This document shows, one piece after another, positions 666-30,390 of a stretch of 64,000 nucleotides of DNA. The translations under genes were made by a program, and so were the position numbers. Source of the DNA: a virus (lineage: Duplodnaviria; Caudoviricetes); IMG/VR virus record IMGVR_UViG_3300037483_000378, positions 16,503-80,502 of that record. One strand, written 5' to 3'. The notes under the pieces were generated by a model that did no database searches, was not told where the DNA came from, and saw nothing but the letters and a program-made list of their open reading frames with translations. Numbering within the stretch: position 1 is the stretch's first letter; the number at the start of each line of letters is the position of its first letter.

Positions 666-741
666 TGCGGGCTGGAGGGAGTCGAACCCTCATGCCGGGA
701 ACCGCCCTGGGCTCCCTGGCCGCCTCCGCAGGCCAGCCCGC
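666..741 (-). ncRNA. tRNA-like RNA, 8-bp acceptor stem, no canonical anticodon loop
   Basis: GCGGGCTG/CAGCCCGC-A acceptor; T-arm GAGGG-TTCGACT-CCCTC; stem GGAGCC/GGTTCC with 6-nt loop CAGGGC. Confidence 0.55.
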
Positions 742-1389
742 TGAAATCTCTCCCTCTGTTCGCCCGCTGCCGCTGTCGGTCCGGTCCGTGTGGTGCGCCG
801 TTTTCCCCCTCGCCGCCTCCGTTGCGCTTGTGTGGCTCATTGGCCGCGCGGGCTGTCGCGATTCGTGTGGTGGGGATAGGTCGCCGGGTCCGGCTGTCGC
901 CGTGGCGTGCGGGCTCCGTCGGGAGTCCCGTGTACCTCTACCGTGCCGCCTCCGCTTCTGCTGCGCCGAACTCCGAAGGCTCATCACCTTCGGCTACTCG
1001 GCGCCTGACGCTTCCTCGCGTGGGGCTCTTCGGTGCCACCGTGTCACGCTGTCGCCGCTTCTTTTGGGGCGCGGCCTCGAAGGCTCTCGAATCCGCCCGG
1101 GGCGTTTGCGTCGGTGGTCTTGTCGTGAGGTTCGCTGCGTACGCAGCGCCGAGTCTCCTGCCCTCGGTCTTGGCCGGTGCCAGCCTATTGGGTCCCGTCC
1201 GACCCTCACCGCCCTGTTTCGCTCGGGCGGCCAGCGGCGGGGTTCCTCTCGTCCGGCATCCCTGGCCGGGGGTCCCGCTTCCTGCCTACAATAATAATGG
1301 GGGCGCCCCCCAATAGCTAGCCCCATAATCACATTGCGCCGCAACGACTTACGGTCATCGGCCTTTCGCGGAAGTGCCGCATAGGCACG

Positions 1390-1426
1390 AAAAGGTGGCC
1401 ACGGCCCCCTATAGTAGTAGGCCACC
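1390..1426 (-). terminator. putative terminator downstream of tRNA array
   Basis: GGTGGCC...GGCCACC stem (19-nt loop) followed by TTTT. Confidence 0.4.
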
Positions 1427-1458
1427 GCCCCGGACGGGCCTGGACCACCTGGTCACCA

Positions 1459-1532
1459 TCGGGGCGGCCGGACTCGAACCGGCGACCCTCTGCTCCCAAA
1501 GCAGATGCGCTGCCCAACTGCGCCACGCCCCG
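1459..1532 (-). tRNA. tRNA-Pro(TGG)
   Basis: full cloverleaf; TCTGC-TT TGG GA-GCAGA. Confidence 0.95.
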
Positions 1533-1540
1533 TCTTTCCA

Positions 1541-1622
1541 TGCGAGCGGGGGGACTCGAACCCCCATGGCCATCGGCCACGAGCTTCTAAGGCTCGCGCG
1601 TCTGCCGTTTCGCCACGCTCGC
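1541..1622 (-). tRNA. tRNA-Leu(TAG)
   Basis: class II cloverleaf; CGAGC-CT TAG AA-GCTCG. Confidence 0.95.
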
Positions 1623-1628
1623 GCGCTC

Positions 1629-1648
1629 ACTCGGGTTTCGTGGTAAGG
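1629..1648 (+). repeat. 20-bp inverted repeat, left copy
   Basis: ACTCGGGTTTCGTGGTAAGG; exact reverse complement at 5452-5471. Confidence 0.9.
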
Positions 1649-1654
1649 GGAAGA

Positions 1655-1728
1655 TGCCCTCGGCCGGACTCGAACCGGCTGCCTCGCGCTTAGGGGGCGC
1701 GCGCTCTGTCCGGTTGAGCTACGAAGGC
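1655..1728 (-). tRNA. tRNA-Arg(CCT)
   Basis: cloverleaf; CGCGC-CC CCT AA-GCGCG (C33); 5' end overlaps the HNH ORF end. Confidence 0.9.
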
Positions 1729-2321
1729 GTCGGGTCGAACAGCTCCTCGACCGCAGCGCGCGCCTCATCGCCGAGCCGCCCAAGGAATACCTCGGCACGC
1801 GTCATCGCCCGCGGCTTCCGGCGCAGGTACATCCGTGCCTCAGCCGGCGTGCGGTTGTCCTTCCGCGCGTTGCACGTCGAGCAGGCGGTCACGGTGTTCT
1901 CGTACACGTTGCGCCCGCCGCGTGACTCCGGCGTCACGTGGTCGATGGTGAGGAACTCGCCCGCCGCCGTGAGCCGAATCGTCTCCGTGCCGTAGCGCAC
2001 CATGACGTCACGCCGTCCGTGCCCGCGCGCAAGATCGCTCTCGTGCCGCCCGCAGTACATGCAGCGGTGCCCGTCCCGTAGGTAGACGTTCCCGCGCGTC
2101 CAGGACGCGCGACCGAACACCACCCCTGCGAAGTCAGCGAGCGCCTCAAGCACGATCACGACTGGGGCCGGGACGCGCACGCGGCCGTCCGCATTCCGGA
2201 ACACGCGGGTCGGGTGATCCCTCAACGACTGCGCCTTGCCCTCCAAGAGCAGGAGCACCGCGCGGTTGACCGGGATCTCGTCGATCGGCGCGAAGCTCGG
2301 GGCCAATACCAGGGTCTTCAT
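1719..2321 (-). CDS. HNH endonuclease (McrA-like, Zn-binding)
   Basis: RDGHRCMYCG...TIDHVTPESRGG...NTVTACSTCNARKDN motifs. Confidence 0.9.
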   Translation of the reverse strand: MKTLVLAPSFAPIDEIPVNRAVLLLLEGKAQSLRDHPTRVFRNADGRVRVPAPVVIVLEALADFAGVVFGRASWTRGNVYLRDGHRCMYCGRHESDLARGHGRRDVMVRYGTETIRLTAAGEFLTIDHVTPESRGGRNVYENTVTACSTCNARKDNRTPAEARMYLRRKPRAMTRAEVFLGRLGDEARAAVEELFDPTPS

Positions 2322-2385
2322 CTTCGTCTCATCGTGCGATCAGTTGAAGGGTGGAACAGCAGCGCGCACCGTGCGCGCAGGGAAA

Positions 2386-2472
2386 CGGAGCGGGTGGGAT
2401 TCGAACCCACGGGGCGCGAACGCCCTCCGGTTTTCAAGACCGGTGCGATAGGCCGGGCTCTGCCACCGTTCC
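2386..2472 (-). tRNA. tRNA-Ser(TGA)
   Basis: class II; CCGGT-CT TGA AA-ACCGG; G73. Confidence 0.95.
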
Positions 2473-2474
2473 AG

Positions 2475-2545
2475 AGATGCCGCCCGGAGTCGAACCGGGC
2501 CTGACGGGTTTGCAGTCCGTCGCCTCGCCGCTCGGCATCGGCACC
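2475..2545 (-). tRNA. tRNA-Cys(GCA)
   Basis: ACGGA-CT GCA AA-CCCGT; U73. Confidence 0.9.
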
Positions 2546-2552
2546 ACGAACA

Positions 2553-2625
2553 AGCGCGCGACGGGTTTCGAACCCGTGGCCTCGAGCTTGGGAAGCTCGC
2601 GCTCTACCGACTGAGCTACGCGCGC
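2553..2625 (-). tRNA. tRNA-Gly(CCC)
   Basis: CGAGC-TT CCC AA-GCTCG; U73. Confidence 0.95.
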
Positions 2626-2629
2626 GAAG

Positions 2630-2710
2630 TGCGTCCGGCAGGACTCGAACCTGCAAGCCAGAAGGCACTCGCTTTTGAGGCGAGCGCGTAGACCATTCCG
2701 CCACGGACGC
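2630..2710 (-). tRNA. tRNA-Leu(CAA)
   Basis: class II; CTCGC-CT CAA AA-GCGAG. Confidence 0.95.
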
Positions 2711-2716
2711 AAGAAG

Positions 2717-2801
2717 TGCTGGCGGGGAGACTCGAACTCCCACGGGCCGAAGCCCCGAGCGTTTTTAGGACGCCCACGTCTGCCGGTTCCGCCACGCCAG
2801 C
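2717..2801 (-). tRNA. tRNA-Leu(TAA), C33 variant
   Basis: class II; GGCGT-CC TAA AA-ACGCT. Confidence 0.85.
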
Positions 2802-2808
2802 GAAGAAA

Positions 2809-2892
2809 CGGATGGAGCGGGATTCGAACCCGCGCGGGGTCACCCCCAACGCCTTAGCAGGGCGTCGCCTTCAGCCACTCGGCCACCCATCC
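2809..2892 (-). tRNA. tRNA-Ser(GCT)
   Basis: class II; ACGCC-CT GCT AA-GGCGT. Confidence 0.95.
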
Positions 2893-2896
2893 AAAG

Positions 2897-2981
2897 TGCT
2901 CGCGCCCGGATTCGAACCGGGATGCCGTCGCCGGCACGGCGCCCTGAACGCCGCGCGTCTGCCAAGTTTCGCCACGCGAGC
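2897..2981 (-). tRNA. tRNA-Leu(CAG)
   Basis: class II; CGGCG-TT CAG GG-CGCCG. Confidence 0.95.
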
Positions 2982-2983
2982 AA

Positions 2984-3066
2984 TGCGCACGGAGGGATTC
3001 GAACCCTCACGCCTCAATGGCACGGCCCCCTCAAGACCGCGTGTCTACCAGCTCCACCACGTGCGC
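2984..3066 (-). tRNA. tRNA-Leu(GAG)
   Basis: class II; CGGTC-TT GAG GG-GGCCG. Confidence 0.95.
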
Positions 3067-3076
3067 GCATACCCTA

Positions 3077-3150
3077 CGGCCCCGCCCGGACTCGAACCGG
3101 GAACGACGCGGTTCCAAAGACCGCCGCCTCTGCCATTCGGCCACGGGGCT
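3077..3150 (-). tRNA. tRNA-Gln(TTG)
   Basis: GCGGT-CT TTG GA-ACCGC; A1.C72 mismatch, G73. Confidence 0.9.
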
Positions 3151-3164
3151 CCTACTCTGCGAAG

Positions 3165-3239
3165 TCTGGGGGGTGGGATTCGAACCCACGACCTCCGCGT
3201 CCCGAACGCGGCGCGCTGGCCGGACTGCGCTACTCCCAG
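3165..3239 (-). tRNA. tRNA-Pro(CGG)
   Basis: CCGCG-TT CGG GA-CGCGG. Confidence 0.95.
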
Positions 3240-3246
3240 ATGATGA

Positions 3247-3320
3247 TGGGCCCGCCGGGACTCGAACCCGGGACCGTCGCCTTATGAGGGCGCCGCTCTA
3301 CCGGACTGAGCTACGGGCCC
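3247..3320 (-). tRNA. tRNA(CAT), probably Ile2 (lysidine)
   Basis: CT CAT AA loop; C4-G69 and C5-G68 pairs as used by TilS; A73. Confidence 0.8.
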
Positions 3321-3325
3321 GAAAA

Positions 3326-3400
3326 TGCCCAGGGAGGGAATCGAACCCCCGGCCTCCTGCTTGTAAGACAGGCGCTCTCCGCTTGCTGAGCTACCCGGGC
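3326..3400 (-). tRNA. tRNA-Val(TAC)
   Basis: CCTGT-CT TAC AA-GCAGG. Confidence 0.95.
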
Positions 3401-3422
3401 GGTGCTGTCGTGATGAAACCAG

Positions 3423-3497
3423 ACCGAGGAACGGGATTCGAACCCGCGGCCTTCGCCATGGCAAGGCGACGCTCTGGCCGGACTGAGCTATCCTCGG
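3423..3497 (-). tRNA. tRNA-Gly(GCC)
   Basis: TCGCC-TT GCC AT-GGCGA; U73. Confidence 0.9.
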
Positions 3498-3503
3498 AAG
3501 TGA

Positions 3504-3614
3504 GCGTGTTGGGGAACATGCGGCAACGGAGAGCCGGTTGCCCGGCGAGTCCAGGCGATGCCTGGTTGCTTTCGTTATGAGCGAAGTAACCGTCACCTTT
3601 CGCCACCGACACGC
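3504..3614 (-). ncRNA. unassigned multi-stem RNA with CTCATAA loop
   Basis: ends pair (GCGTGT/ACACGC); D-arm-like TGGCGAAAGGTGACG; TTCG-CTCATAA-CGAA; two more hairpins; no T-loop. Confidence 0.5.
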
Positions 3615-3615
3615 A

Positions 3616-3689
3616 TAGCGGGAGAGGGATTTGAACCCTCGACCTTCAGCTTATGAGGCTGACGAGCTACCAGGCTGCTCTATCCCGCT
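3616..3689 (-). tRNA. tRNA-Met(CAT), initiator-like scaffold
   Basis: fMet-type D-arm GAGCAGCCTGGTAGCTC and TTCAAAT T-loop, but A1-U72 and TCAGC/GCTGA anticodon stem. Confidence 0.85.
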
Positions 3690-3695
3690 GATAAA

Positions 3696-3781
3696 TGGAC
3701 CCGGCTGGATTTGAACCAGCGTGCACCACATGGCCTCCCGTTTATCAGACGGGCGCTCTGACCGGACTGAGCTACGGGTCC
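3696..3781 (-). tRNA. tRNA-Ile(GAT) with 16-nt variable region
   Basis: CCCGT-CT GAT AA-ACGGG, then AGGCCATGTGGTGCAC before the T-arm. Confidence 0.85.
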
Positions 3782-3787
3782 AACTGA

Positions 3788-4173
3788 TGGAGGCGGCGGG
3801 AGTCGAACCCGCGTCCGTTCACGCTTCCAAGTCGTGACTTCTAGTGCGATTGTCGCGTTTCGAGTTTCTCACCCAAACTAACGTCCTCGGATGAGGCGGG
3901 GCTCTCGCGGTGCGCCAGACCTACTACCCCTCCGAAGGGTGAGCCCCCTTCAGGTGGCCTCGTCTTTCCGAGTGCCCATCTGGCTGATCGACGTTCTCTA
4001 AGCGACACCAGAATGATCACGAAGAGAACGGGAGACTTACGCTGCCTTGCGGAGCGGCTCCGAGTTGAGATCGCTGTTCGCGTTTCTCGGTTGTCCTAGC
4101 GCGTTAGCGACTGAGCTAGGATCGTCGCGCACATCACTTCCTTTCCACGAAACGTCGAAACCTTTACGCCCCC
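3788..4173 (-). ncRNA. ssrA: tmRNA
   Basis: 5' GGGGGCGTAAAGGTTTCGAC; 3' GGACGCGGGTTCGACTCCCGCCGCCTCCA with G3.U70; tag ORF 4081-4037 ANSDLNSEPLRKAA*. Confidence 0.95.
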
Positions 4174-4198
4174 GTTTTTCATTCCCCCCCCCCAACCA

Positions 4199-4270
4199 TG
4201 GAGCTGGCGGGGATCGAACCCGCGGCGTCCGCCATGCGAAGACGGCGCTCTCCCTCTGAGCTACAGCCCC
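4199..4270 (-). tRNA. tRNA-Ala(CGC)
   Basis: G3.U70; CCGTC-TT CGC AT-GGCGG. Confidence 0.95.
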
Positions 4271-4273
4271 TCA

Positions 4274-4347
4274 AGCCAACGCCCGGCATCGAACCGGGGA
4301 CCTTCCGCTTACAAGGCGGGTGCTCTGCCTAGCTGAGCTACGTTGGC
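4274..4347 (-). tRNA. tRNA-Thr(TGT)
   Basis: CCCGC-CT TGT AA-GCGGA. Confidence 0.95.
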
Positions 4348-4354
4348 GCGTTCT

Positions 4355-4427
4355 GCGCGGAACCGGCGACTGTCCCCTCTTCGGTGTCTTTCGACCGTCC
4401 GGTACGGAATGTCCATCCGGTCCGCGC
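4355..4427 (-). ncRNA. unassigned structured RNA in tRNA array
   Basis: closing helix GCGCGGA-CCGG/CCGG-TTCCGCGC; inner TCCG-TAC-CGGA and TC-GAAA-GA hairpins. Confidence 0.4.
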
Positions 4428-4432
4428 GTATA

Positions 4433-4519
4433 CGGAGCGGGAAGGATTCGAACCTTCGTGCCCACGTGGGGCTCTCGCTTTCGGGGCGAGCGCGTTTGGC
4501 CTGGCTCCGCCACCGCTCC
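4433..4519 (-). tRNA. tRNA-Ser(CGA), C33 variant
   Basis: class II; CTCGC-CC CGA AA-GCGAG; G73. Confidence 0.9.
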
Positions 4520-4526
4520 ATCGAAG

Positions 4527-4599
4527 TTGCCCCACCAGGATTCGAACCTGGAACCTCCGCGTCCAGAGCGCGGCGCGCTGCCAGTTGTGCTATGGGGCA
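4527..4599 (-). tRNA. tRNA-Gln(CTG)
   Basis: U1-A72; CCGCG-CT CTG GA-CGCGG. Confidence 0.95.
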
Positions 4600-4610
4600 A
4601 TGTGAAGAAG

Positions 4611-4686
4611 GGTGACCGACGGGATTTGAACCCGCGATCTCCGGGGCCACGGCCCGGCGCTTTCGGCCGACTAAGCTACGATCACC
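4611..4686 (-). tRNA. tRNA-His(GTG), C33 variant
   Basis: encoded G-1 pairing with C73; CCGGG-CC GTG GC-CCCGG. Confidence 0.9.
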
Positions 4687-4693
4687 ATTGAAG

Positions 4694-4768
4694 TGCGCCC
4701 GGAGGGATTCGAACCCCCGACCTCCTGATCCGTAGTCAGGCGCTCCGTCCAGACTGAGCTACGGGCGC
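4694..4768 (-). tRNA. tRNA-Arg(ACG)
   Basis: CCTGA-CT ACG GA-TCAGG. Confidence 0.95.
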
Positions 4769-4776
4769 AAGGTAGG

Positions 4777-4864
4777 CACGAGACGCGGTCTGACGGAGCC
4801 CCGCCACGGGAGTCGAACCCTGCCGCGCCCCGTGCCATCACGGCCGCCCATGAGACCGACCGTG
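4777..4864 (-). ncRNA. T-arm-containing tRNA mimic (Y-RNA-like candidate)
   Basis: ends pair (CACG/CGTG, CGGTCT/AGACCG); CCGTG-ATGG-CACGG hairpin; GGG-TTCGACT-CCC T-loop. Confidence 0.45.
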
Positions 4865-4868
4865 TAAA

Positions 4869-4941
4869 AGCTGCGAGCGGGAGTTGAACCCACGACCTCC
4901 TGCTTACGGGGCGGCGCTCTCCCGTGCTGAGCTATCGGAGC
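4869..4941 (-). tRNA. degenerate tRNA-Thr(CGT), possible pseudo-tRNA
   Basis: CCGC-CC CGT AA-GCAGG (1 nt short in stem, C33); C.C mismatch in acceptor. Confidence 0.6.
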
Positions 4942-4944
4942 AAG

Positions 4945-5018
4945 TCTGGACGGCGGGACTCGAACCCGCGACCCCTGGTCCCCCAGACCAGTGCGCTACC
5001 GGGCTGCGCCACGTCCAG
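4945..5018 (-). tRNA. tRNA-Pro(GGG)
   Basis: CTGGT-CT GGG GG-ACCAG. Confidence 0.95.
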
Positions 5019-5023
5019 AAGAG

Positions 5024-5096
5024 TACCCCGAGCGCGACTCGAACGCGCGACCTTCTGCTTCGGAGGCAGACGCTCTGTCCGCTGAGCTATCGGGGC
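5024..5096 (-). tRNA. tRNA-Arg(CCG)
   Basis: TCTGC-CT CCG AA-GCAGA. Confidence 0.95.
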
Positions 5097-5103
5097 GAAA
5101 AAA

Positions 5104-5177
5104 CGGGACCGGAAGGAATCGAACCCTCGACCTCTCGTTCTGGAGACGAGCGCTCTACCAGCGTGAGCTACGGACCC
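5104..5177 (-). tRNA. tRNA-Trp(CCA)
   Basis: CTCGT-CT CCA GA-ACGAG; G73. Confidence 0.95.
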
Positions 5178-5181
5178 GAAG

Positions 5182-5256
5182 TGTGCGCGGACGGAGTTGA
5201 ACCGCCGACAACCTGGCTCTTCACGCCAGTGCTCTACCACGCTGAGCTACGCGCAC
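5182..5256 (-). tRNA. tRNA-Phe(GAA)
   Basis: CTGGC-GT GAA GA-GCCAG (G32, G37). Confidence 0.9.
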
Positions 5257-5259
5257 GCA

Positions 5260-5331
5260 TACCCCCACGGGGAATCGAACCCCGGTCGCCACCTTGAAAG
5301 AGTGGTGTCCTGGCCGCTAGACGATGAGGGC
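5260..5331 (-). tRNA. tRNA-Glu(TTC)
   Basis: CCACT-CT TTC AA-GGTGG. Confidence 0.95.
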
Positions 5332-5338
5332 AAAGGCA

Positions 5339-5411
5339 TACCTCCGGGCGGAATTGAACCGCCGTTCCCGCCGTGAGAGGGCAGCGTCCTGGGCCACTAG
5401 ACGACGGAGGC
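5339..5411 (-). tRNA. tRNA-Glu(CTC)
   Basis: CTGCC-CT CTC AC-GGCGG. Confidence 0.95.
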
Positions 5412-5418
5412 ATTGCTG

Positions 5419-5450
5419 GGCATGCCGAGGTGTTCCGGCCTCGGCATGCC
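5419..5450. repeat. perfect 12-bp hairpin at 5' leader of tRNA array
   Basis: GGCATGCCGAGG-N8-CCTCGGCATGCC. Confidence 0.8.
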
Positions 5451-5451
5451 A

Positions 5452-5471
5452 CCTTACCACGAAACCCGAGT
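5452..5471 (-). repeat. 20-bp inverted repeat, right copy (also extended -10-like TGGTAAGGT)
   Basis: CCTTACCACGAAACCCGAGT on plus strand = reverse complement of 1629-1648. Confidence 0.9.
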
Positions 5472-25096: not shown

Positions 25097-27949
25097 TCAG
25101 CCCCCCACCGGAGCGTAGTCAGGCAGTCGCGTCACGCCGTCAAGCGCGGTGAGGCGCCGAAGCTCCGAGCTGACGCGCCGAATCTCGTTGCCGCGCGAGT
25201 CCACCAGGATGACCTGCACGCTCTGCTGCCCCGGCTGAATCTGCTTCTGCTGCTCAAGCGCCTTCTGTGAGTACTGGTCCACCTCCACGCGCTGCCGGTC
25301 GTTGCGCTTCGACAGCACGGCTGCGAGTATCCCGCCGATCGCTCCGAACACGGGTACGCCGAACCCGCCGAAGATGGACCCGAGCGGGCCGTCCTTTTGA
25401 GCGAGCGTCTGCATGATCTGCGTCATCGCGTTGACTACGGTGACCTCGATCTGGCCCATCCCTCCCGCGAACGCCGCGACGATCGCGCCCATGCCGCTGA
25501 TCGTGATGGCGGTCACGTCGAGCTGTGCTTGACGCGCGATGCCGAGCGCGTCCGCGTAGTCCTCGACGGACAGTCCGGCGGACCGTGCCGCTCTGCGAAG
25601 GAGGTCGAACTGCTCTACCGACATGCCGAACTCGCTCGCCTTCGTCGCCTGCCGCTGCGCTGTCGCGAACGCGGCCATGAGCGTCGTCGCAGAAAGTGAT
25701 GGCAACGTGGGCGTGAACTTGCCCGTATTCTCGTCCGTGGTGCCCGGCACGCTGGGCTGCGGTAGGACACCCATGGCAGCAGCGGCACCAGGCACAGGGA
25801 GACCAAGCCGGAAGTTGCCCAAGGAGCGCGGCGTGAAGTCCATGGCAGCGATCTTGGCTTGCGCCATGCGGCCCAACTCCGCAGTGACGCGGGCCAGCGC
25901 GCTCTCGGTCAGCTGCATTTCCGTGCGCGCCTTGGCGATGGACTCGCCCATGTCCTTCCACACGTCACTACCCACAGCTAGGCCCGCCTGCGAGGTCTCC
26001 AGCGTGAACAACTGCTTCCGCGCGCCCTCCATCTGCTGCTTCAACTCGGCGTGCACGTCGCCCAGCTCGCGCGCGCTGAGTCGCACCGTGGACCCGAACC
26101 CGACGGCCACCTTGTCCAGCTCCGCCTTCAGGTCCGCCGCCGCGCGTGCGGCAGCGAACTCCTCCGTTTGGAGGCGCTGAAACTCAGGACCCAGTACGGC
26201 CACCTTCGCTCGCAGGCCAGGTAGCACTCGCTCCAGGTCTTCGATCTGCAACTGTAGGCTAGATTTCCTACCCATCTCTTCACGTCGCAGCTTGCCGAGC
26301 TGGCTGGGCATCGCATCCTCGCGCCTCACCGCGAACTCGGCTTCTACCGCCGCCAGATCAGCCCGGGCCTTCTTGAGCTGCTCTTCCGCTGCGTCCCTTT
26401 GCCGCTGCGCACCTACGAACAGGCCCACGACCTCCACGGAGCCAAGCCCCTCGATGCCGCTTTTCACGTCCGCCAGCATCCCGCGCCAGCTATCGGCGGC
26501 GTCCCGGGCCACCTTGTCCGCACGAGCGAATGCGGCGGCCAGCAGCGCGACCCCCGTAAGCACCGCGCCGATCACCGTCGTGGATGCTAGCGTACGCAGC
26601 ACCAGCGTGAGCGTGGGCACCGCCACGGCGAGCCGCGTGACGGCAACCGTGATGGCAGGGATCGCCATCTGCGCCGCCTTCATTCCGGTCACCAGCGCCC
26701 AAGCCCGCATCAACCCGGACACGGCGAGCATGGCGGGACCGGCAGCAGCGGTGAGCGCGACGAGCCCCACGGCCGTCGTGCGGATTGGGGCCGGCAGCGC
26801 CGTGAACACCTGCACGCCCACGCGCACCACGTCGAGGAGCCCACCGGCCGCGCCCGCCGCGAGCTTGGCGGCCGGTGCCATGCCCGTGCCCAGCTCGGCC
26901 GCGACGTTCGTAGCCTTGTTCGCCACGACGATGAAGTCAGCCGCCATGCGCTTGTAGAACTTATCAGCCTCCTTCGTCATCGCCGTGTTCTCTGCCCACA
27001 GCTTCGTGCCGCGCTCCGTGGCGTCGGAGAGCAGGTCGCCTGCGTTGGCGAGCGACAGGAACGCGCGGGCGAGCCGCTGGTCGCCTGCGATCAGTTCCTC
27101 AAGCACGGACGCCGCCAGGTCACCCTCGCGCTTCAGCCCCCCGACGAACGCGCTGAACGCCTGGGCTGGCTTGTCGTGCCACGTAGCGACGAACTCCTCC
27201 GACGACATGCCGGAGACTTCCGCAAACCGCGCTACCTCGGCACCTCCCGTGGCCACGGCCGTGTTGATCGTGATGAGCGCCTTCTGCATAGCCGTGCCAC
27301 CGGCTTCCGCCTGCACGCCGACGGACGACAGCGAGGCGCCGAGCGCGAAGACTTCCGCCTCCGTGAACCCGGCGATCCTACCGGCGCCCGCCATGCGCAA
27401 GGCGAACTCCGTGATCTCGGCTTCCGTGGTGGCCATCGTGTTGCCGAGCCCGACGATCACGGAACCCATCCGGTCGAAGTCGCCCTGCGACGTGCCCATG
27501 ATGTTGGCCATCCGGGCCAGCGCGTTGCCGGCGCTTTCCGCCGTCAGGTTCGTCGAAACGGAGAGTGCGGCGACCGTCGTCGTGAAGCCGAGGATGGACT
27601 CCGTGGCGATGCCGAGCTGCCCTGCCTGAGCGCCGATTCCCGCCAGCTCGTTCGACGCGACGGGGATGGCCTCGCTAAGTGCCACGAACTCTTGACCGAG
27701 CCGTTCGATGCGCTCGATGGGCGCATCCACGGTCTTCGCCACGCCCACCATGGCCGTGTCCCACGATGCGGCGGCACGGATCGCGGTCGCGGCACCTGCC
27801 ACGAGCGGAAGCGTGATCCCGAGGGACATGCGCATCCCGGCCTGCTGCACCTTCTCGGCAGCCCCCATCACACCACGGCTAACGGCGTCGAACTCCTTGA
27901 CCGCCTGCTCAGCCTGTGCGTTGATGATGATGGTGATGCGCTCGGCCAT
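25097..27949 (-). CDS. tape measure protein (TP901 family)
   Basis: WDTAMVGVAKT...GSVIVGLGNTMATTEAEI...AGGTAM; 950 aa helical. Confidence 0.93.
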   Translation of the reverse strand: MAERITIIINAQAEQAVKEFDAVSRGVMGAAEKVQQAGMRMSLGITLPLVAGAATAIRAAASWDTAMVGVAKTVDAPIERIERLGQEFVALSEAIPVASNELAGIGAQAGQLGIATESILGFTTTVAALSVSTNLTAESAGNALARMANIMGTSQGDFDRMGSVIVGLGNTMATTEAEITEFALRMAGAGRIAGFTEAEVFALGASLSSVGVQAEAGGTAMQKALITINTAVATGGAEVARFAEVSGMSSEEFVATWHDKPAQAFSAFVGGLKREGDLAASVLEELIAGDQRLARAFLSLANAGDLLSDATERGTKLWAENTAMTKEADKFYKRMAADFIVVANKATNVAAELGTGMAPAAKLAAGAAGGLLDVVRVGVQVFTALPAPIRTTAVGLVALTAAAGPAMLAVSGLMRAWALVTGMKAAQMAIPAITVAVTRLAVAVPTLTLVLRTLASTTVIGAVLTGVALLAAAFARADKVARDAADSWRGMLADVKSGIEGLGSVEVVGLFVGAQRQRDAAEEQLKKARADLAAVEAEFAVRREDAMPSQLGKLRREEMGRKSSLQLQIEDLERVLPGLRAKVAVLGPEFQRLQTEEFAAARAAADLKAELDKVAVGFGSTVRLSARELGDVHAELKQQMEGARKQLFTLETSQAGLAVGSDVWKDMGESIAKARTEMQLTESALARVTAELGRMAQAKIAAMDFTPRSLGNFRLGLPVPGAAAAMGVLPQPSVPGTTDENTGKFTPTLPSLSATTLMAAFATAQRQATKASEFGMSVEQFDLLRRAARSAGLSVEDYADALGIARQAQLDVTAITISGMGAIVAAFAGGMGQIEVTVVNAMTQIMQTLAQKDGPLGSIFGGFGVPVFGAIGGILAAVLSKRNDRQRVEVDQYSQKALEQQKQIQPGQQSVQVILVDSRGNEIRRVSSELRRLTALDGVTRLPDYAPVGG

Positions 27950-27967
27950 CCGTGCCTTCCCTCTCCG

Positions 27968-28192
27968 CTAGTGCTTCTTCTGGCCGGCTGCGTAACCGGC
28001 CGAAATCTCAAGCATCGCCTCACCCCACCACGGGTCCACATCGTCCCAGCTCGACAGACCCAACTCGACCGGGGTTTTGCCCCAGTTCTCCAGCATCGTC
28101 CAGCTGACCACCAGCCGCCGCTCGCGCCGGCTCAACGACCGCAGCGGGTTCATGCCACGGGCGATCGTCCTGCCGGCGCCCCTCAGTTTCCC
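27968..28192 (-). CDS. tail assembly chaperone GT, -1 frame extension
   Basis: slippery G GGA AAC at 28192-28186 just before the G stop; -1 frame open to 27968. Confidence 0.8.
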   Translation of the reverse strand, partial: GKLRGAGRTIARGMNPLRSLSRRERRLVVSWTMLENWGKTPVELGLSSWDDVDPWWGEAMLEISAGYAAGQKKH

Positions 28193-28560
28193 CGGGACGT
28201 GCCCGCCAGCATGGCATCCGTGATCAGCTCGTTGCCGCCCTTGACCTTCCAGCCCGGCTTGAGCCGCGCGAGGTGGTCCGCGTCCCCGGCCACGAACGGC
28301 GCTCCGTCGAACGTCGGCACGTCGGAGCCCTCGAACCCGAGAAGGTGGGATTCGAAGGCCACGACCATCTCCTGGAGCGAAGCGCGCAGCGTCACGGAGT
28401 CGTTGCGCACGCCTTCCTCGCCAGCCTTCGGCACCACCACCTCGGGAGCCGACCGCTCCCACACCGCTGCCAGTTCGCGCGACGTCATCGTGCGCAAGAT
28501 CGCCGTGACGCCCTCTACCATTTCTACCTTCATCGTCGGCAGCCGCTTCGGCATTTCCAT
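28183..28560 (-). CDS. tail assembly chaperone G
   Basis: between tail tube and tape measure; ends ..SRGN*. Confidence 0.8.
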   Translation of the reverse strand: MEMPKRLPTMKVEMVEGVTAILRTMTSRELAAVWERSAPEVVVPKAGEEGVRNDSVTLRASLQEMVVAFESHLLGFEGSDVPTFDGAPFVAGDADHLARLKPGWKVKGGNELITDAMLAGTSRGN

Positions 28561-28707
28561 GACTCGCCTTCCTTTCGCATCCCGCGTTTCGTTGGATTGT
28601 CTACGTGATTCTACGAGGGGTCTTCACCGCCCACCCCGTCGAGCATTCATGGGCCCAGGTAATGGGAGATGCCCGGGCAGAATGTCGCTCGACGTCACTG
28701 CTCTTGA

Positions 28708-28788
28708 CGGAGGGAGCGGGAGTCGAACCCGCCAGGAGTGGGATGAGGCTCCTGCCGGCGCCCGCACCACGTCGCGCCGGACCCCTCA
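28708..28788 (-). ncRNA. tRNA-like cloverleaf in tail operon
   Basis: GAGGGG/TCCCTC acceptor, 6-bp D stem, 6-bp stem with 10-nt loop, GCGGG-TTCGACT-CCCGC. Confidence 0.55.
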
Positions 28789-28815
28789 TGCTTCGTGCTT
28801 CCAGTCAACCCTCTC

Positions 28816-29799
28816 CTAGTCGAATACGATCGACAGCGAGTCCTCCGTCTCCGCATCCGTGTGCTGGCACCGGATCGTGAGATCGGTGAGCGCCATGCCG
28901 TCGCGCTCCGGCCCGCTGTGCTCGATGATGCGACCCTTCGGGCCGCTCGCAGTCACCCGGTTGTACTGCGTCGCCCCGACCGGCCCGATGTCCCACGCGA
29001 AGAGCGTGCCTGCGTGGCGCAGCGCCCACGGGTCGAACGTGCTGATCGCCCCGCGCTCGATGGTCGTCTTGATCATCGGGTTATAGTCCGTCACGTACAC
29101 GCCAGCGAAGCCGTCCGTGTCGTTGCCGTGCGGGAGGTCGGCCAGTTCGATGCCGAGGTCGAGCTCGAAGTCGTCGAACCCGGCAGGGTCCACAGAGTTG
29201 AGCGACAGCCCCGCACCCTTCACCGTCGGCGGCGTCACGGCCTCGTACGCGTACGTGATCGTCGGCAGCGCGACCTGCGTCACGCCTGCCAAGAACCCGC
29301 GCAGCGAGAACACGGCGCGCGGGATCTGGCCCGGCGTGAAGAGGAACCGCGCGTTGCCTCGGCACCCGTTAACCTTGAACAGCTTCCCGCCGCTGTACGC
29401 CCACACGGTCGCGCTTTCGAAGCCGCTCGACCGGAGCGTGTACGTGCAGACCTTCGCGCCAGCACTGCCCGTCACCGTGGGCTGCAGGGCGCATGCCCTC
29501 AGAAACACGTCGTACTCCGGCACCACTGTGCCCGTTGCGTAGGCCAAGAGCGTGCCCTTGAGGGCCGTCGTCACCTCAAGGTCCATCCATCTCCCCGTGG
29601 GCGTCGCGGAGCCGACGCGGCCCAGGCCCACACCCGCGAGGTTCTCCCGCAGGTTCTCCTCCACGTAGCCCCACGTCGTGTTGTCGTGCAGCGTCTCCTC
29701 GACCTGCACGCCGTCGGTTCCCACGACGGGTGTGGGGTCCGTCTTGTAGACGCTCTCGATCTTCGCCAGGAGCCCTTCCAGCCGCACTAGCTCGGGCAT
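28816..29799 (-). CDS. major tail tube protein
   Basis: LLAKIESVYKTDP...PEYDVFLRAC; 327 aa; position. Confidence 0.85.
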   Translation of the reverse strand: MPELVRLEGLLAKIESVYKTDPTPVVGTDGVQVEETLHDNTTWGYVEENLRENLAGVGLGRVGSATPTGRWMDLEVTTALKGTLLAYATGTVVPEYDVFLRACALQPTVTGSAGAKVCTYTLRSSGFESATVWAYSGGKLFKVNGCRGNARFLFTPGQIPRAVFSLRGFLAGVTQVALPTITYAYEAVTPPTVKGAGLSLNSVDPAGFDDFELDLGIELADLPHGNDTDGFAGVYVTDYNPMIKTTIERGAISTFDPWALRHAGTLFAWDIGPVGATQYNRVTASGPKGRIIEHSGPERDGMALTDLTIRCQHTDAETEDSLSIVFD

Positions 29800-29803
29800 A
29801 GTG

Positions 29804-29995
29804 TCATCTCCCTCTCTTCAGGTGGTTCGGCCCCTTGGCCTTGTGGCAGCGGTGCGCGGCAAACGCTACCGGCTCCGCGATCGTCTCGGTCCCGCACTTC
29901 AGGCAGACGTAGGCAACCTCCTCACCGGCGCCGTCCCGATCCCTGATGACGGCGTACGGGCGATCGTCGATCCACCCCTCACGATTCAGCGTCAT
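29804..29995 (-). CDS. small Cys/His protein
   Basis: CLKC...HRCH; 63 aa. Confidence 0.5.
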   Translation of the reverse strand: MTLNREGWIDDRPYAVIRDRDGAGEEVAYVCLKCGTETIAEPVAFAAHRCHKAKGPNHLKRGR

Positions 29996-30390
29996 CTCGC
30001 CGCGCTCTCGTGATCAGCCCACGCCGCGTCGGCTGCGTCCGAGCGTCCGTGGAATTTCCCCTTGTCCGGCCCTTCCAACTCTCGTCCGTCCGGCGCCTTC
30101 ACGGTCCCGTACCCACCCCTAGACCACCGACCCGCGTAGGCGTATCCGGGCGGGAGGGCGATGGGGTCGTCGTCGGGACGTGCTACGGGCCCCGCCATGG
30201 GCCCTACGGCCGTCGTCGCCAGCTCCGGGGGCACCTTACCACCCCCAGACGTACCGGGGCAGCGTACCGAGTGCCTGGCGAAGCGCTCGACGTTTCGGAA
30301 TGACTCCAGGCAGTCGAGGCAAACGAGCCCGCCCGTGTCGTCGAGGGCGAAGCGCCTGCCCGCGATGGACCCAGCATTCTGCATGGTCAT
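29992..30390 (-). CDS. hypothetical protein with C2H2-like motif
   Basis: CLDCLESF...HSVRC; GAGGAG RBS. Confidence 0.55.
   Translation of the reverse strand: MTMQNAGSIAGRRFALDDTGGLVCLDCLESFRNVERFARHSVRCPGTSGGGKVPPELATTAVGPMAGPVARPDDDPIALPPGYAYAGRWSRGGYGTVKAPDGRELEGPDKGKFHGRSDAADAAWADHESAAR

Follow-up and report, generated by a model that had tools for sequence, protein, structure and literature searches.

A long-tailed phage needs hundreds of tail tube subunits for every few chaperone and tape measure molecules, and to our knowledge the setting of this ratio at the level of RNA is known for very few of these phages. The question raised by the locus described here is what a tRNA-shaped fold is doing between the tail tube and tail assembly chaperone genes of a phage, and whether it is a tRNA, the remains of one or an RNA signal that acts within the late tail transcript. 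The phage is an uncultivated, soil-type virus represented by an IMG/VR record of 80.5 kb (completeness estimate 93%), of which we analyzed a continuous stretch of 64,000 nt (the window). A first-pass annotation of the same DNA had read the fold as an RNase P/RNase Z cut site or translation-status sensor built into the late tail mRNA, and the results below bear on this reading and on its rivals.

A tRNA-Shaped Element between the Tail Tube and Chaperone Genes

The tube–chaperone gap is 255 nt long in the window, and the genes around it are all on the minus strand. Upstream lies the tail tube gene (28816–29799; Pfam PF18906 Phage_tube_2, E 8.6e-08), and downstream the open reading frames delineate a tail assembly chaperone G-like gene (28183–28560) with a −1 frame extension (27968–28462) whose peptide is kept in all relatives, followed by the tape measure gene (25097–27949). 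A Shine–Dalgarno-like AGGAAGG (28567–28573, minus strand) can be read directly 6 nt 5′ of the chaperone ATG, and the chaperone N-terminus, MELPKR, is conserved in all relatives. Open reading frames and Pfam hence confirm the previously proposed order of tube, chaperone and tape measure around the gap, and the distance of ~23 kb that had been given between the element and the tRNA array (666–5412) is also correct. No promoter-like or terminator-like site was found in 27800–30000; since the neighboring genes also share one strand, the element is likely to be co-transcribed with the tube and chaperone genes that flank it.

On the minus strand, the element spans 81 nt (28708–28788) and comprises an acceptor, two noncanonical arms, a T arm and a discriminator base, as delineated by its minimum-energy cloverleaf, by a covariance model and by comparison with relatives. 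The acceptor 5′ strand UGAGGGG (28782–28788) pairs with the 3′ strand UCCCUCC (28709–28715) at six of seven positions (a U1·C72 mismatch, then five Watson–Crick pairs and one G·U), and the discriminator G73 (28708) has no encoded CCA after it. One linker base separates the acceptor 5′ strand from arm 1 (28755–28780), which takes the place of the D arm and has a stem of up to 7 bp (CCGGCGC/GCGCCGG) closed by a 12-nt loop. Arm 2 (28733–28754), which stands in place of an anticodon arm or long variable arm, consists of a 6-bp stem and a 10-nt loop, CCUCAUCCCA, at 28739–28748 (CAUCCCA lies within this loop), and is joined with no variable region to a canonical T arm, GCGGG-UUCGACU-CCCGC (28716–28732). 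The predicted fold continues 3′ of the element, on the same strand, with a long interrupted hairpin that has a pyrimidine-rich apical loop (28637–28694). Reading and folding the minus strand reproduces all of the cloverleaf features that had been listed for this locus and also recovers the long hairpin said to follow them; one measurement is amended, as the arm described as a 6-bp D-stem is present but its stem can reach 7 bp.

The cloverleaf is the minimum-energy fold of the 81-mer, in which it has an ensemble frequency of 0.455; however, the energy of the 81-mer is ordinary for its G+C content (z = −1.03 vs. shuffled sequences) and the whole 255-nt gap (z = +0.30) folds differently from the cloverleaf. 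By thermodynamics alone the element is therefore not above chance, and its significance comes from comparison with relatives rather than from folding energy.

The Element Matches Neither a Decoding tRNA nor a Known RNA Family

Like canonical tRNAs, the element has a seven-position acceptor, a discriminator base and a UUCRANY loop on a 5-bp T stem; however, the canonical 5-bp anticodon stem and 7-nt loop, set at a constant distance from the acceptor end, are replaced in the window by 6 bp and 10 nt. The Rfam tRNA model (RF00005, threshold 29 bits) returned no match at this locus even at E values up to 10, and ARAGORN made no tRNA call at default settings or with -ps, yielding only an odd 83-nt “tRNA-?” fold with -ps80. 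A decoding tRNA with an expanded loop or an intron was likewise rejected, given that relaxed and intron ARAGORN searches and the Rfam model all fail and that the length of the arm is unconserved. Assignment to tRNA-Sec would call for more than 47 bits, an 8-bp acceptor, a UCA anticodon arm and a long variable arm; the corresponding model (RF01852) gave 21.5 bits (E 0.1) against its threshold of 47, in an alignment that drops the entire anticodon arm and lays arm 2 on the variable arm. No Rfam family matched the element in the window or the loci of six relatives, and we regard it as a candidate new structured-RNA family.

Several readings outside of the tRNA family were also rejected. A quadruplet-decoding helper for the chaperone frameshift is not indicated, the frameshift being a −1 shift of the usual kind, the peptide of which is conserved. 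A protein-coding gap is contradicted by the 62-codon open reading frame that begins at the acceptor ATG, which is unconserved among relatives (the ATG is missing from L013 and L026, and a stop interrupts the frame early in L009). A Ro/Y-RNA module was sought through YrlA (RF02553) at the locus and the TROVE domain in the genome, with no match to either (of the components of such a module, RtcB alone is encoded), and no promoter or terminator belonging to the element itself was found.

Related Phages Conserve the Position and Pairing of the Element

Relatives were collected as metagenomic homologs of the tube protein. The contigs compared are L009 (identical to L010 and L011), L012, L026, L013, L021 and L025; the window, L009, L012, L026 and L013 constitute the five near members, and L021 and L025 are more distant and were parsed by hand from coordinates. 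The tRNA-shaped element is found in the same tube–chaperone gap in all six of these metagenomic phages (tube identity 63–80%), and all seven lineages with a tube identity of at least 63% and a readable gap hold it there. The readable gaps of the six relatives are 267–325 nt long (gaps of 229 and 248 nt are known for two more relatives, outside of the set with readable DNA), and in six members the element starts 6–49 nt after the tube stop codon. Positional conservation had been set beforehand as the test of the element, and the fold passes it, standing in the same slot in six relatives with compensatory changes.

In a four-way alignment of the gap (window, L009, L012 and L013), the element forms a conserved island in an otherwise unalignable sequence. 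Identity of the core to the window is 86% in L009, 84% in L012, 81% in L026 and 73% in L013; the corresponding values for four-fold sites of the adjacent tube gene, taken at conserved residues, are 54%, 53%, 49% and 33%, and the flanking gap gives about 50% or less. Pairing is preserved as well: 95% of the structure cells are paired in the five near members, with three pairs changed on both sides, whereas in a control in which the 3′ partners were slid by 1–3 columns pairing falls to 51–62%. When the 12 acceptor and T-stem pairs are followed through all seven members, 76 of 84 cells are paired and compensatory double changes occur in 8 of the 12 columns. The acceptors of L021 (UGGCGAG/CUCGCCA) and L025 (GACGGGA/UCCCGUC) have been wholly rewritten, with all seven positions paired, including position 1–72 (U-A in L021, G-C in L025), which is mismatched in the five members of the window's subclade. 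The T stem varies too, with CCAGG/CCUGG and CCGGG/CCCGG in place of GCGGG/CCCGC and compensatory double changes in two of its pairs, around a T loop, UUCGANU, that is invariant in 7/7 members, and the T arm is canonical in all of them.

The remaining arms are looser. Arm-1 stem pairs are maintained through G-C to A-U and G-C to G-U changes below a loop of 7–25 nt, and arm 2 has a stem of 5, 6 or 11 bp (two of its pairs compensatory) and a loop of 10–11 nt where it is present, and is absent in L025. This latitude in arm 2, with a stem of anywhere from 5 to 11 bp and one member without the arm, supports the earlier claim that the element cannot decode. Within the arm-2 loop, the core YCAUCC is conserved in six members while the surrounding stems all change. 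The downstream hairpin is also shared, the four closest relatives having 15 consensus pairs (three with compensatory changes) and pyrimidine-rich, CCUCC-like apical loops. The covariation count would be weaker if L021 and L025 were not orthologs but had each captured a tRNA independently, which is possible. We consider it very probable, on this comparative evidence, that the element is a selected, nondecoding, tRNA-derived RNA structure.

The element appears to be clade-specific. It is absent from L018 (tube identity 61%) and from L022–L024 (48–51%), and none of 80 IMG/VR loci with tube identities of 26–42% has a tRNA or, in the post-tube gap, the T-loop motif, the sole GGTTCRANYCC match in this distant set (L080) being ~2.5 kb downstream of the tube gene. 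Its absence from L018, L022–L024 and the 80 distant loci indicates that it is dispensable for this type of tail operon. A DNA-pattern search of IMG/VR and the JGI metagenomes returned only chance or ordinary-tRNA matches (L014–L017), and a DNA search found no close isolated phage, the best tube-protein match being 36% over part of its length and 25–27% over most of it. In L018, the tube–chaperone slot is filled by a 483-aa gene (4001–5452, plus strand) with a match to Peptidase_S78 (prohead protease family), and the slot seems to be an insertion hot spot.

That the slot accepts such insertions, that more distant relatives lack the element and that its 3′ 21-mer matches class II tRNAs in six bacterial genomes would all fit a neutral relic, namely a decaying tRNA pseudogene or an attachment-site scar in a tolerant intergenic position. 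However, conservation of the core far exceeds that of synonymous sites and of the flanks, and the stems are maintained by compensatory changes, which largely refutes this reading and leaves it, in our estimate, highly improbable. A tRNA-derived attP or scar was also rejected as a candidate in its own right: no PF00589 tyrosine integrase was found in the 93%-complete genome (serine recombinase families lie outside this search), and the element retains the two halves of a cloverleaf, of which an attP core would require no more than the 3′ part. These two observations, together with selection on the pairing, argue that the element is not an integration scar.

A Serine tRNA Is the Probable Ancestor

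A covariance model, R1, built from the five near members scores the element at 102.6 bits and indicates that it is single-copy in the genome; the next-best R1 matches in the phage genome are its three tRNA-Ser genes (33.7, 28.7 and 25.3 bits). The phage tRNA-Ser(GCU) (2808–2893) is identical to the element at 23/25 nt over the T arm, 3′ acceptor strand and G73, and also has its G2, A3, G5, G6, G7·U66 wobble and U8. Unlike the phage tRNA-Ser, the element lacks a 7-nt anticodon loop and a D arm of normal size, is mismatched at position 1–72 and is rejected by the Rfam tRNA model and ARAGORN. In six bacterial genomes, the 3′ 21-mer of the element matches only class II tRNAs (Leu, Tyr and Ser). 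The history that fits these likenesses most simply is that a copy of a class II tRNA, probably the phage's own tRNA-Ser, entered the gap and subsequently shed its decoding parts; the arm that precedes the T arm is probably what remains of the long variable arm. A tRNA-Tyr on an Actinomycetes MAG contig (L004) also carries, letter for letter, the 21-nt word formed by the T arm and acceptor of the element; it lies within a dense array of 21 tRNA genes (2038–3953, minus strand) that may be a prophage or a mobile tRNA array of a related host group.

The rest of the genome is rich in tRNA-related features. It encodes 32 tRNAs and a tmRNA (tag ANSDLNSEPLRKAA), and an RtcB RNA ligase domain (218 bits) lies in a 642-aa open frame outside of the window (G000:C1:661–1752, minus strand), which together suggest that the phage invests heavily in supplying or repairing tRNAs; tRNAs for Lys, Asn, Asp and Tyr are missing from the genome. 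The suggestion that tRNA folds are also reused as regulatory parts at 666, 3504 and 4777 is weakly upheld overall: 666–741 is tRNA-like, and the Rfam and R1 models detected nothing at the other two places (3498–3615 and 4769–4868). The first (666–741, minus strand) is called tRNA-Pro(AGG) by ARAGORN, misses the Rfam tRNA model and reaches a sub-threshold 26.7 bits with the tRNA-Sec model; it is set apart from the main array, and its 9-bp acceptor (GCGGGCUGG/CCAGCCCGC) and 5-bp T stem make it another noncanonical tRNA-like gene. The others are minus-strand gaps within the tRNA array: 4769–4868, which resembles a decayed tRNA, contains the T-loop word GGTTCGACTCC with a T stem of only 3 bp and is not called as a tRNA, and 3498–3615 gives no tRNA-like signal with Rfam or R1.

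The element could also be a functional nondecoding tRNA mimic, charged by SerRS for nonribosomal use or acting as a decoy for host tRNA-directed defence nucleases. The heavy tRNA investment of the phage (32 tRNAs, tmRNA and RtcB) and the fact that the closest matches in the genome are the three tRNA-Ser genes would suit a mimic, and G2-C71, A3-U70 and G73, with an arm placed directly before the T arm, recall what we take to be the serine identity set. However, the acceptor identity is unconserved (the stems of L021 and L025 differ, and L025 has U73), CCA is not encoded and no phage CCA-adding enzyme was found; moreover, a decoy has no evident need for a fixed place in the tail operon. We hence think a mimic very unlikely.

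The Conserved Minihelix Points to a Possible Cut Site in the Late Transcript

Selection has kept a coaxial minihelix of acceptor and T arm (7 + 5 bp), together with the canonical T loop and a discriminator that stays unpaired. Such a minihelix is the smallest unit that RNase P, RNase Z and the CCA-adding enzyme recognize, and an RNase P/RNase Z cut site is the best-fitting mechanism because the conserved part of the element is exactly this unit; the arms outside of the minihelix vary freely, which is the pattern expected if only this recognition unit matters. The minihelix, the precedents of t-elements and RNase P discussed below, and the lack of promoter-like or terminator-like sites around the element together favor a punctuation signal. 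We therefore put forward, at a shade under even probability, the proposal that the element is a tRNA-derived t-element at which host RNase P and RNase Z would separate the tube mRNA from the chaperone and tape measure mRNA.

Under this proposal, the fold would form while the tube–chaperone gap is being transcribed, RNase P would cut at the 5′ edge of the element (~28788) and RNase Z or another 3′ endonuclease would cut after G73 (~28708). The late mRNA would thereby be split into an upstream part that carries the head and tube genes and a downstream part that carries the chaperone and tape measure genes, the new 5′ end of which would bear the conserved long hairpin. The two parts could then decay and be translated independently, helping to set a high ratio of tube to chaperone and tape measure. 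From a fold whose positional conservation, covariation, purifying selection and nondecoding character are seen in the sequences, we infer co-transcription with the neighboring genes, the cleavages and their effect on expression. Nothing was found in support of the other half of the first-pass reading, a sensor of translation status.

Several points weigh against the proposed cut site, among them that related tail operons do without the element. The folding energy does not exceed that of shuffled sequence, and when the full gap is folded, the pairing probability of the acceptor is about 0 in the window's subclade; however, 37% of the phage's own 32 tRNAs, folded with similar flanks, have an acceptor pairing probability <0.05, and because these genuine tRNAs behave alike, weak in-context folding carries little weight. 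In addition, once cleaved by RNase P, the tube mRNA would end in 6–49 nt of unprotected 3′ sequence, an outcome that does not obviously favor high tube expression.

In another reading, the element would be a tRNA-like cap at the 3′ end of the tube mRNA, cut only after G73, with the compact fold blocking 3′-to-5′ exonucleases and stabilizing the tail message in greatest demand. tRNA-like 3′ ends are stable, the element follows the tube stop codon directly (within 6–49 nt in six members) and five members share the U1·C72 mismatch, which might make cutting by RNase P less efficient. Against this, RNase P would formally have a good substrate in the minihelix, and position 1–72 is fully paired in L021 and L025, and we regard a 3′ cap as improbable.

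The Arm-2 Loop May Have an Antisense Role

A pure cut-site role would leave unexplained both the conservation of the YCAUCC loop and the CGGGAU repeats near the chaperone start. An alternative that addresses both is a regulatory RNA on a tRNA scaffold, either released or acting in cis, whose YCAUCC loop would pair with GGGAU(G) words beside the chaperone ribosome-binding site, or with purine-rich start regions elsewhere, and so lower translation. Its logic would resemble that of the P1/P7 C4 antisense RNA, which is matured by RNase P. We consider it unlikely on present evidence.

The observations that prompt this reading are comparative. YCAUCC is the only sequence outside of the T loop that is kept in six members while all stems change, and even the distant L024, which has no tRNA frame, has a hairpin with the loop CCCUCAUCCC in the same gap. 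In the window, a GGGAUG word upstream of the chaperone ribosome-binding site (28578–28583, minus strand) could pair with CAUCCC in the loop of arm 2, to which it is complementary. Counted over the final 70 nt of the gap in the four near relatives, GGGAU occurs eight times, as against 0.48 expected from shuffles; the words usually lie within CGGGAU and are complementary to AUCCC of the loop. L025, the member without arm 2, has no GGGAU word either, and in L013 and L021 the loop CAUCC can pair with a GGAUG that spans the chaperone start codon.

However, the energies of the loop–target duplexes are marginal, with per-sequence shuffle fractions from 0.014 to 0.30, and the complementary word shifts in position. 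In the remainder of the window, 9 exact or near complements were counted vs. 4.8 expected, no more than chance, and the best 10-nt match in the operon (28018–28027) is explained by a conserved protein motif, W-G-E. That match (UGGGGUGAGG) was accordingly rejected as a trans target: it is conserved in L009 and L012, encodes W-G-E and does not covary with the loop of L013. Furthermore, the four relatives that carry the repeats are close kin, and the repeats may reflect shared ancestry or a protein-binding site.

The repeats merit description in their own right. CGGGAU(C/G) words occur upstream of the chaperone ribosome-binding site in the window (28578–28590, minus strand) and in the last 70 nt of the gaps of L009, L012 and L026, the last of which has up to four copies spaced ~13–17 nt apart; instead of pairing with the loop of arm 2, these words could serve as a repeat that binds a protein. 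GGTACC...GGTACC-type palindromes are also present in the gaps of relatives (L009 ~4200–4215; L026 ~1490–1505).

The cut-site and antisense readings can be combined, in that a scaffold derived from tRNA-Ser might be excised as a stable small RNA by host RNase P and RNase Z and its YCAUCC loop might then base-pair with GGGAU(G) start regions, that of the chaperone first. This combination is, on the sequence evidence, unlikely too; if true, it would be a tRNA-scaffolded antisense regulator coupled to mRNA punctuation, undescribed for a phage structural operon.

Comparison with Known tRNA-Like Processing Elements

The t-elements of plant mitochondria are degenerate cloverleaves with the motif GGTTCRANYCC that direct cleavage by RNase P and RNase Z, their edges coinciding with mRNA ends (Forner et al. 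2007, PMC1920247). The phage element resembles them in being a degenerate, tRNA-derived cloverleaf with the GGTTCRANYCC T-loop motif and an acceptor-like stem: it carries the word GGTTCGACTCC, and its cloverleaf is backed by covariation. The setting is probably similar as well, in that t-elements adjoin coding sequence inside longer transcripts and the phage element adjoins coding genes on the same strand. The two differ in that cutting by RNase P and RNase Z has been proposed or demonstrated for t-elements whereas for the phage element it is a prediction, and in that the known t-elements are organellar and from plants whereas the phage element lies in the late structural operon of a bacteriophage. 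Unlike t-elements, the phage family has a sequence-conserved extra loop, YCAUCC, and a conserved downstream hairpin.

Phages themselves offer a further parallel. The C4 RNA of P1 and P7 is a phage small RNA that RNase P matures from a longer transcript and whose loops pair with a ribosome-binding region. Unlike C4, the element has no Rfam C4 match and its loop–target pairing is suggestive only; C4 lacks a canonical T arm and sits in the immunity region, whereas the element sits in the tail operon. The C4 precursor is named as an RNase P substrate in the title of Hartmann et al. (1995; reference 206 of PMC4919922), and the reference list of the same review also contains papers on polycistronic operon mRNAs of E. 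coli as RNase P substrates.

RNase P also cleaves tRNA-like structures at the ends of MALAT1 and MEN-beta (PMC4919922). As in these RNAs, RNase P acting on a fold inside a long transcript could define where the upstream RNA ends, and RNase Z could release a small tRNA-like RNA, as with mascRNA. MALAT1 and MEN-beta are eukaryotic nuclear lncRNAs in which the upstream RNA is protected by a triple helix, however, and no such structure was seen upstream of the element.

The literature that we searched contains no description of a tRNA-shaped processing signal in a phage tail operon. If the proposed cut site is real, the element would be the counterpart in a bacterial virus of the organellar t-element and of MALAT1/mascRNA, in which the enzymes of tRNA maturation are borrowed to punctuate a transcript, and it would represent a clear case of a phage tRNA gene copy that was repurposed after loss of its decoding arm. 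tRNA-like processing elements are a known class; by analogy with its members, what would be new here is the setting in a phage tail operon.
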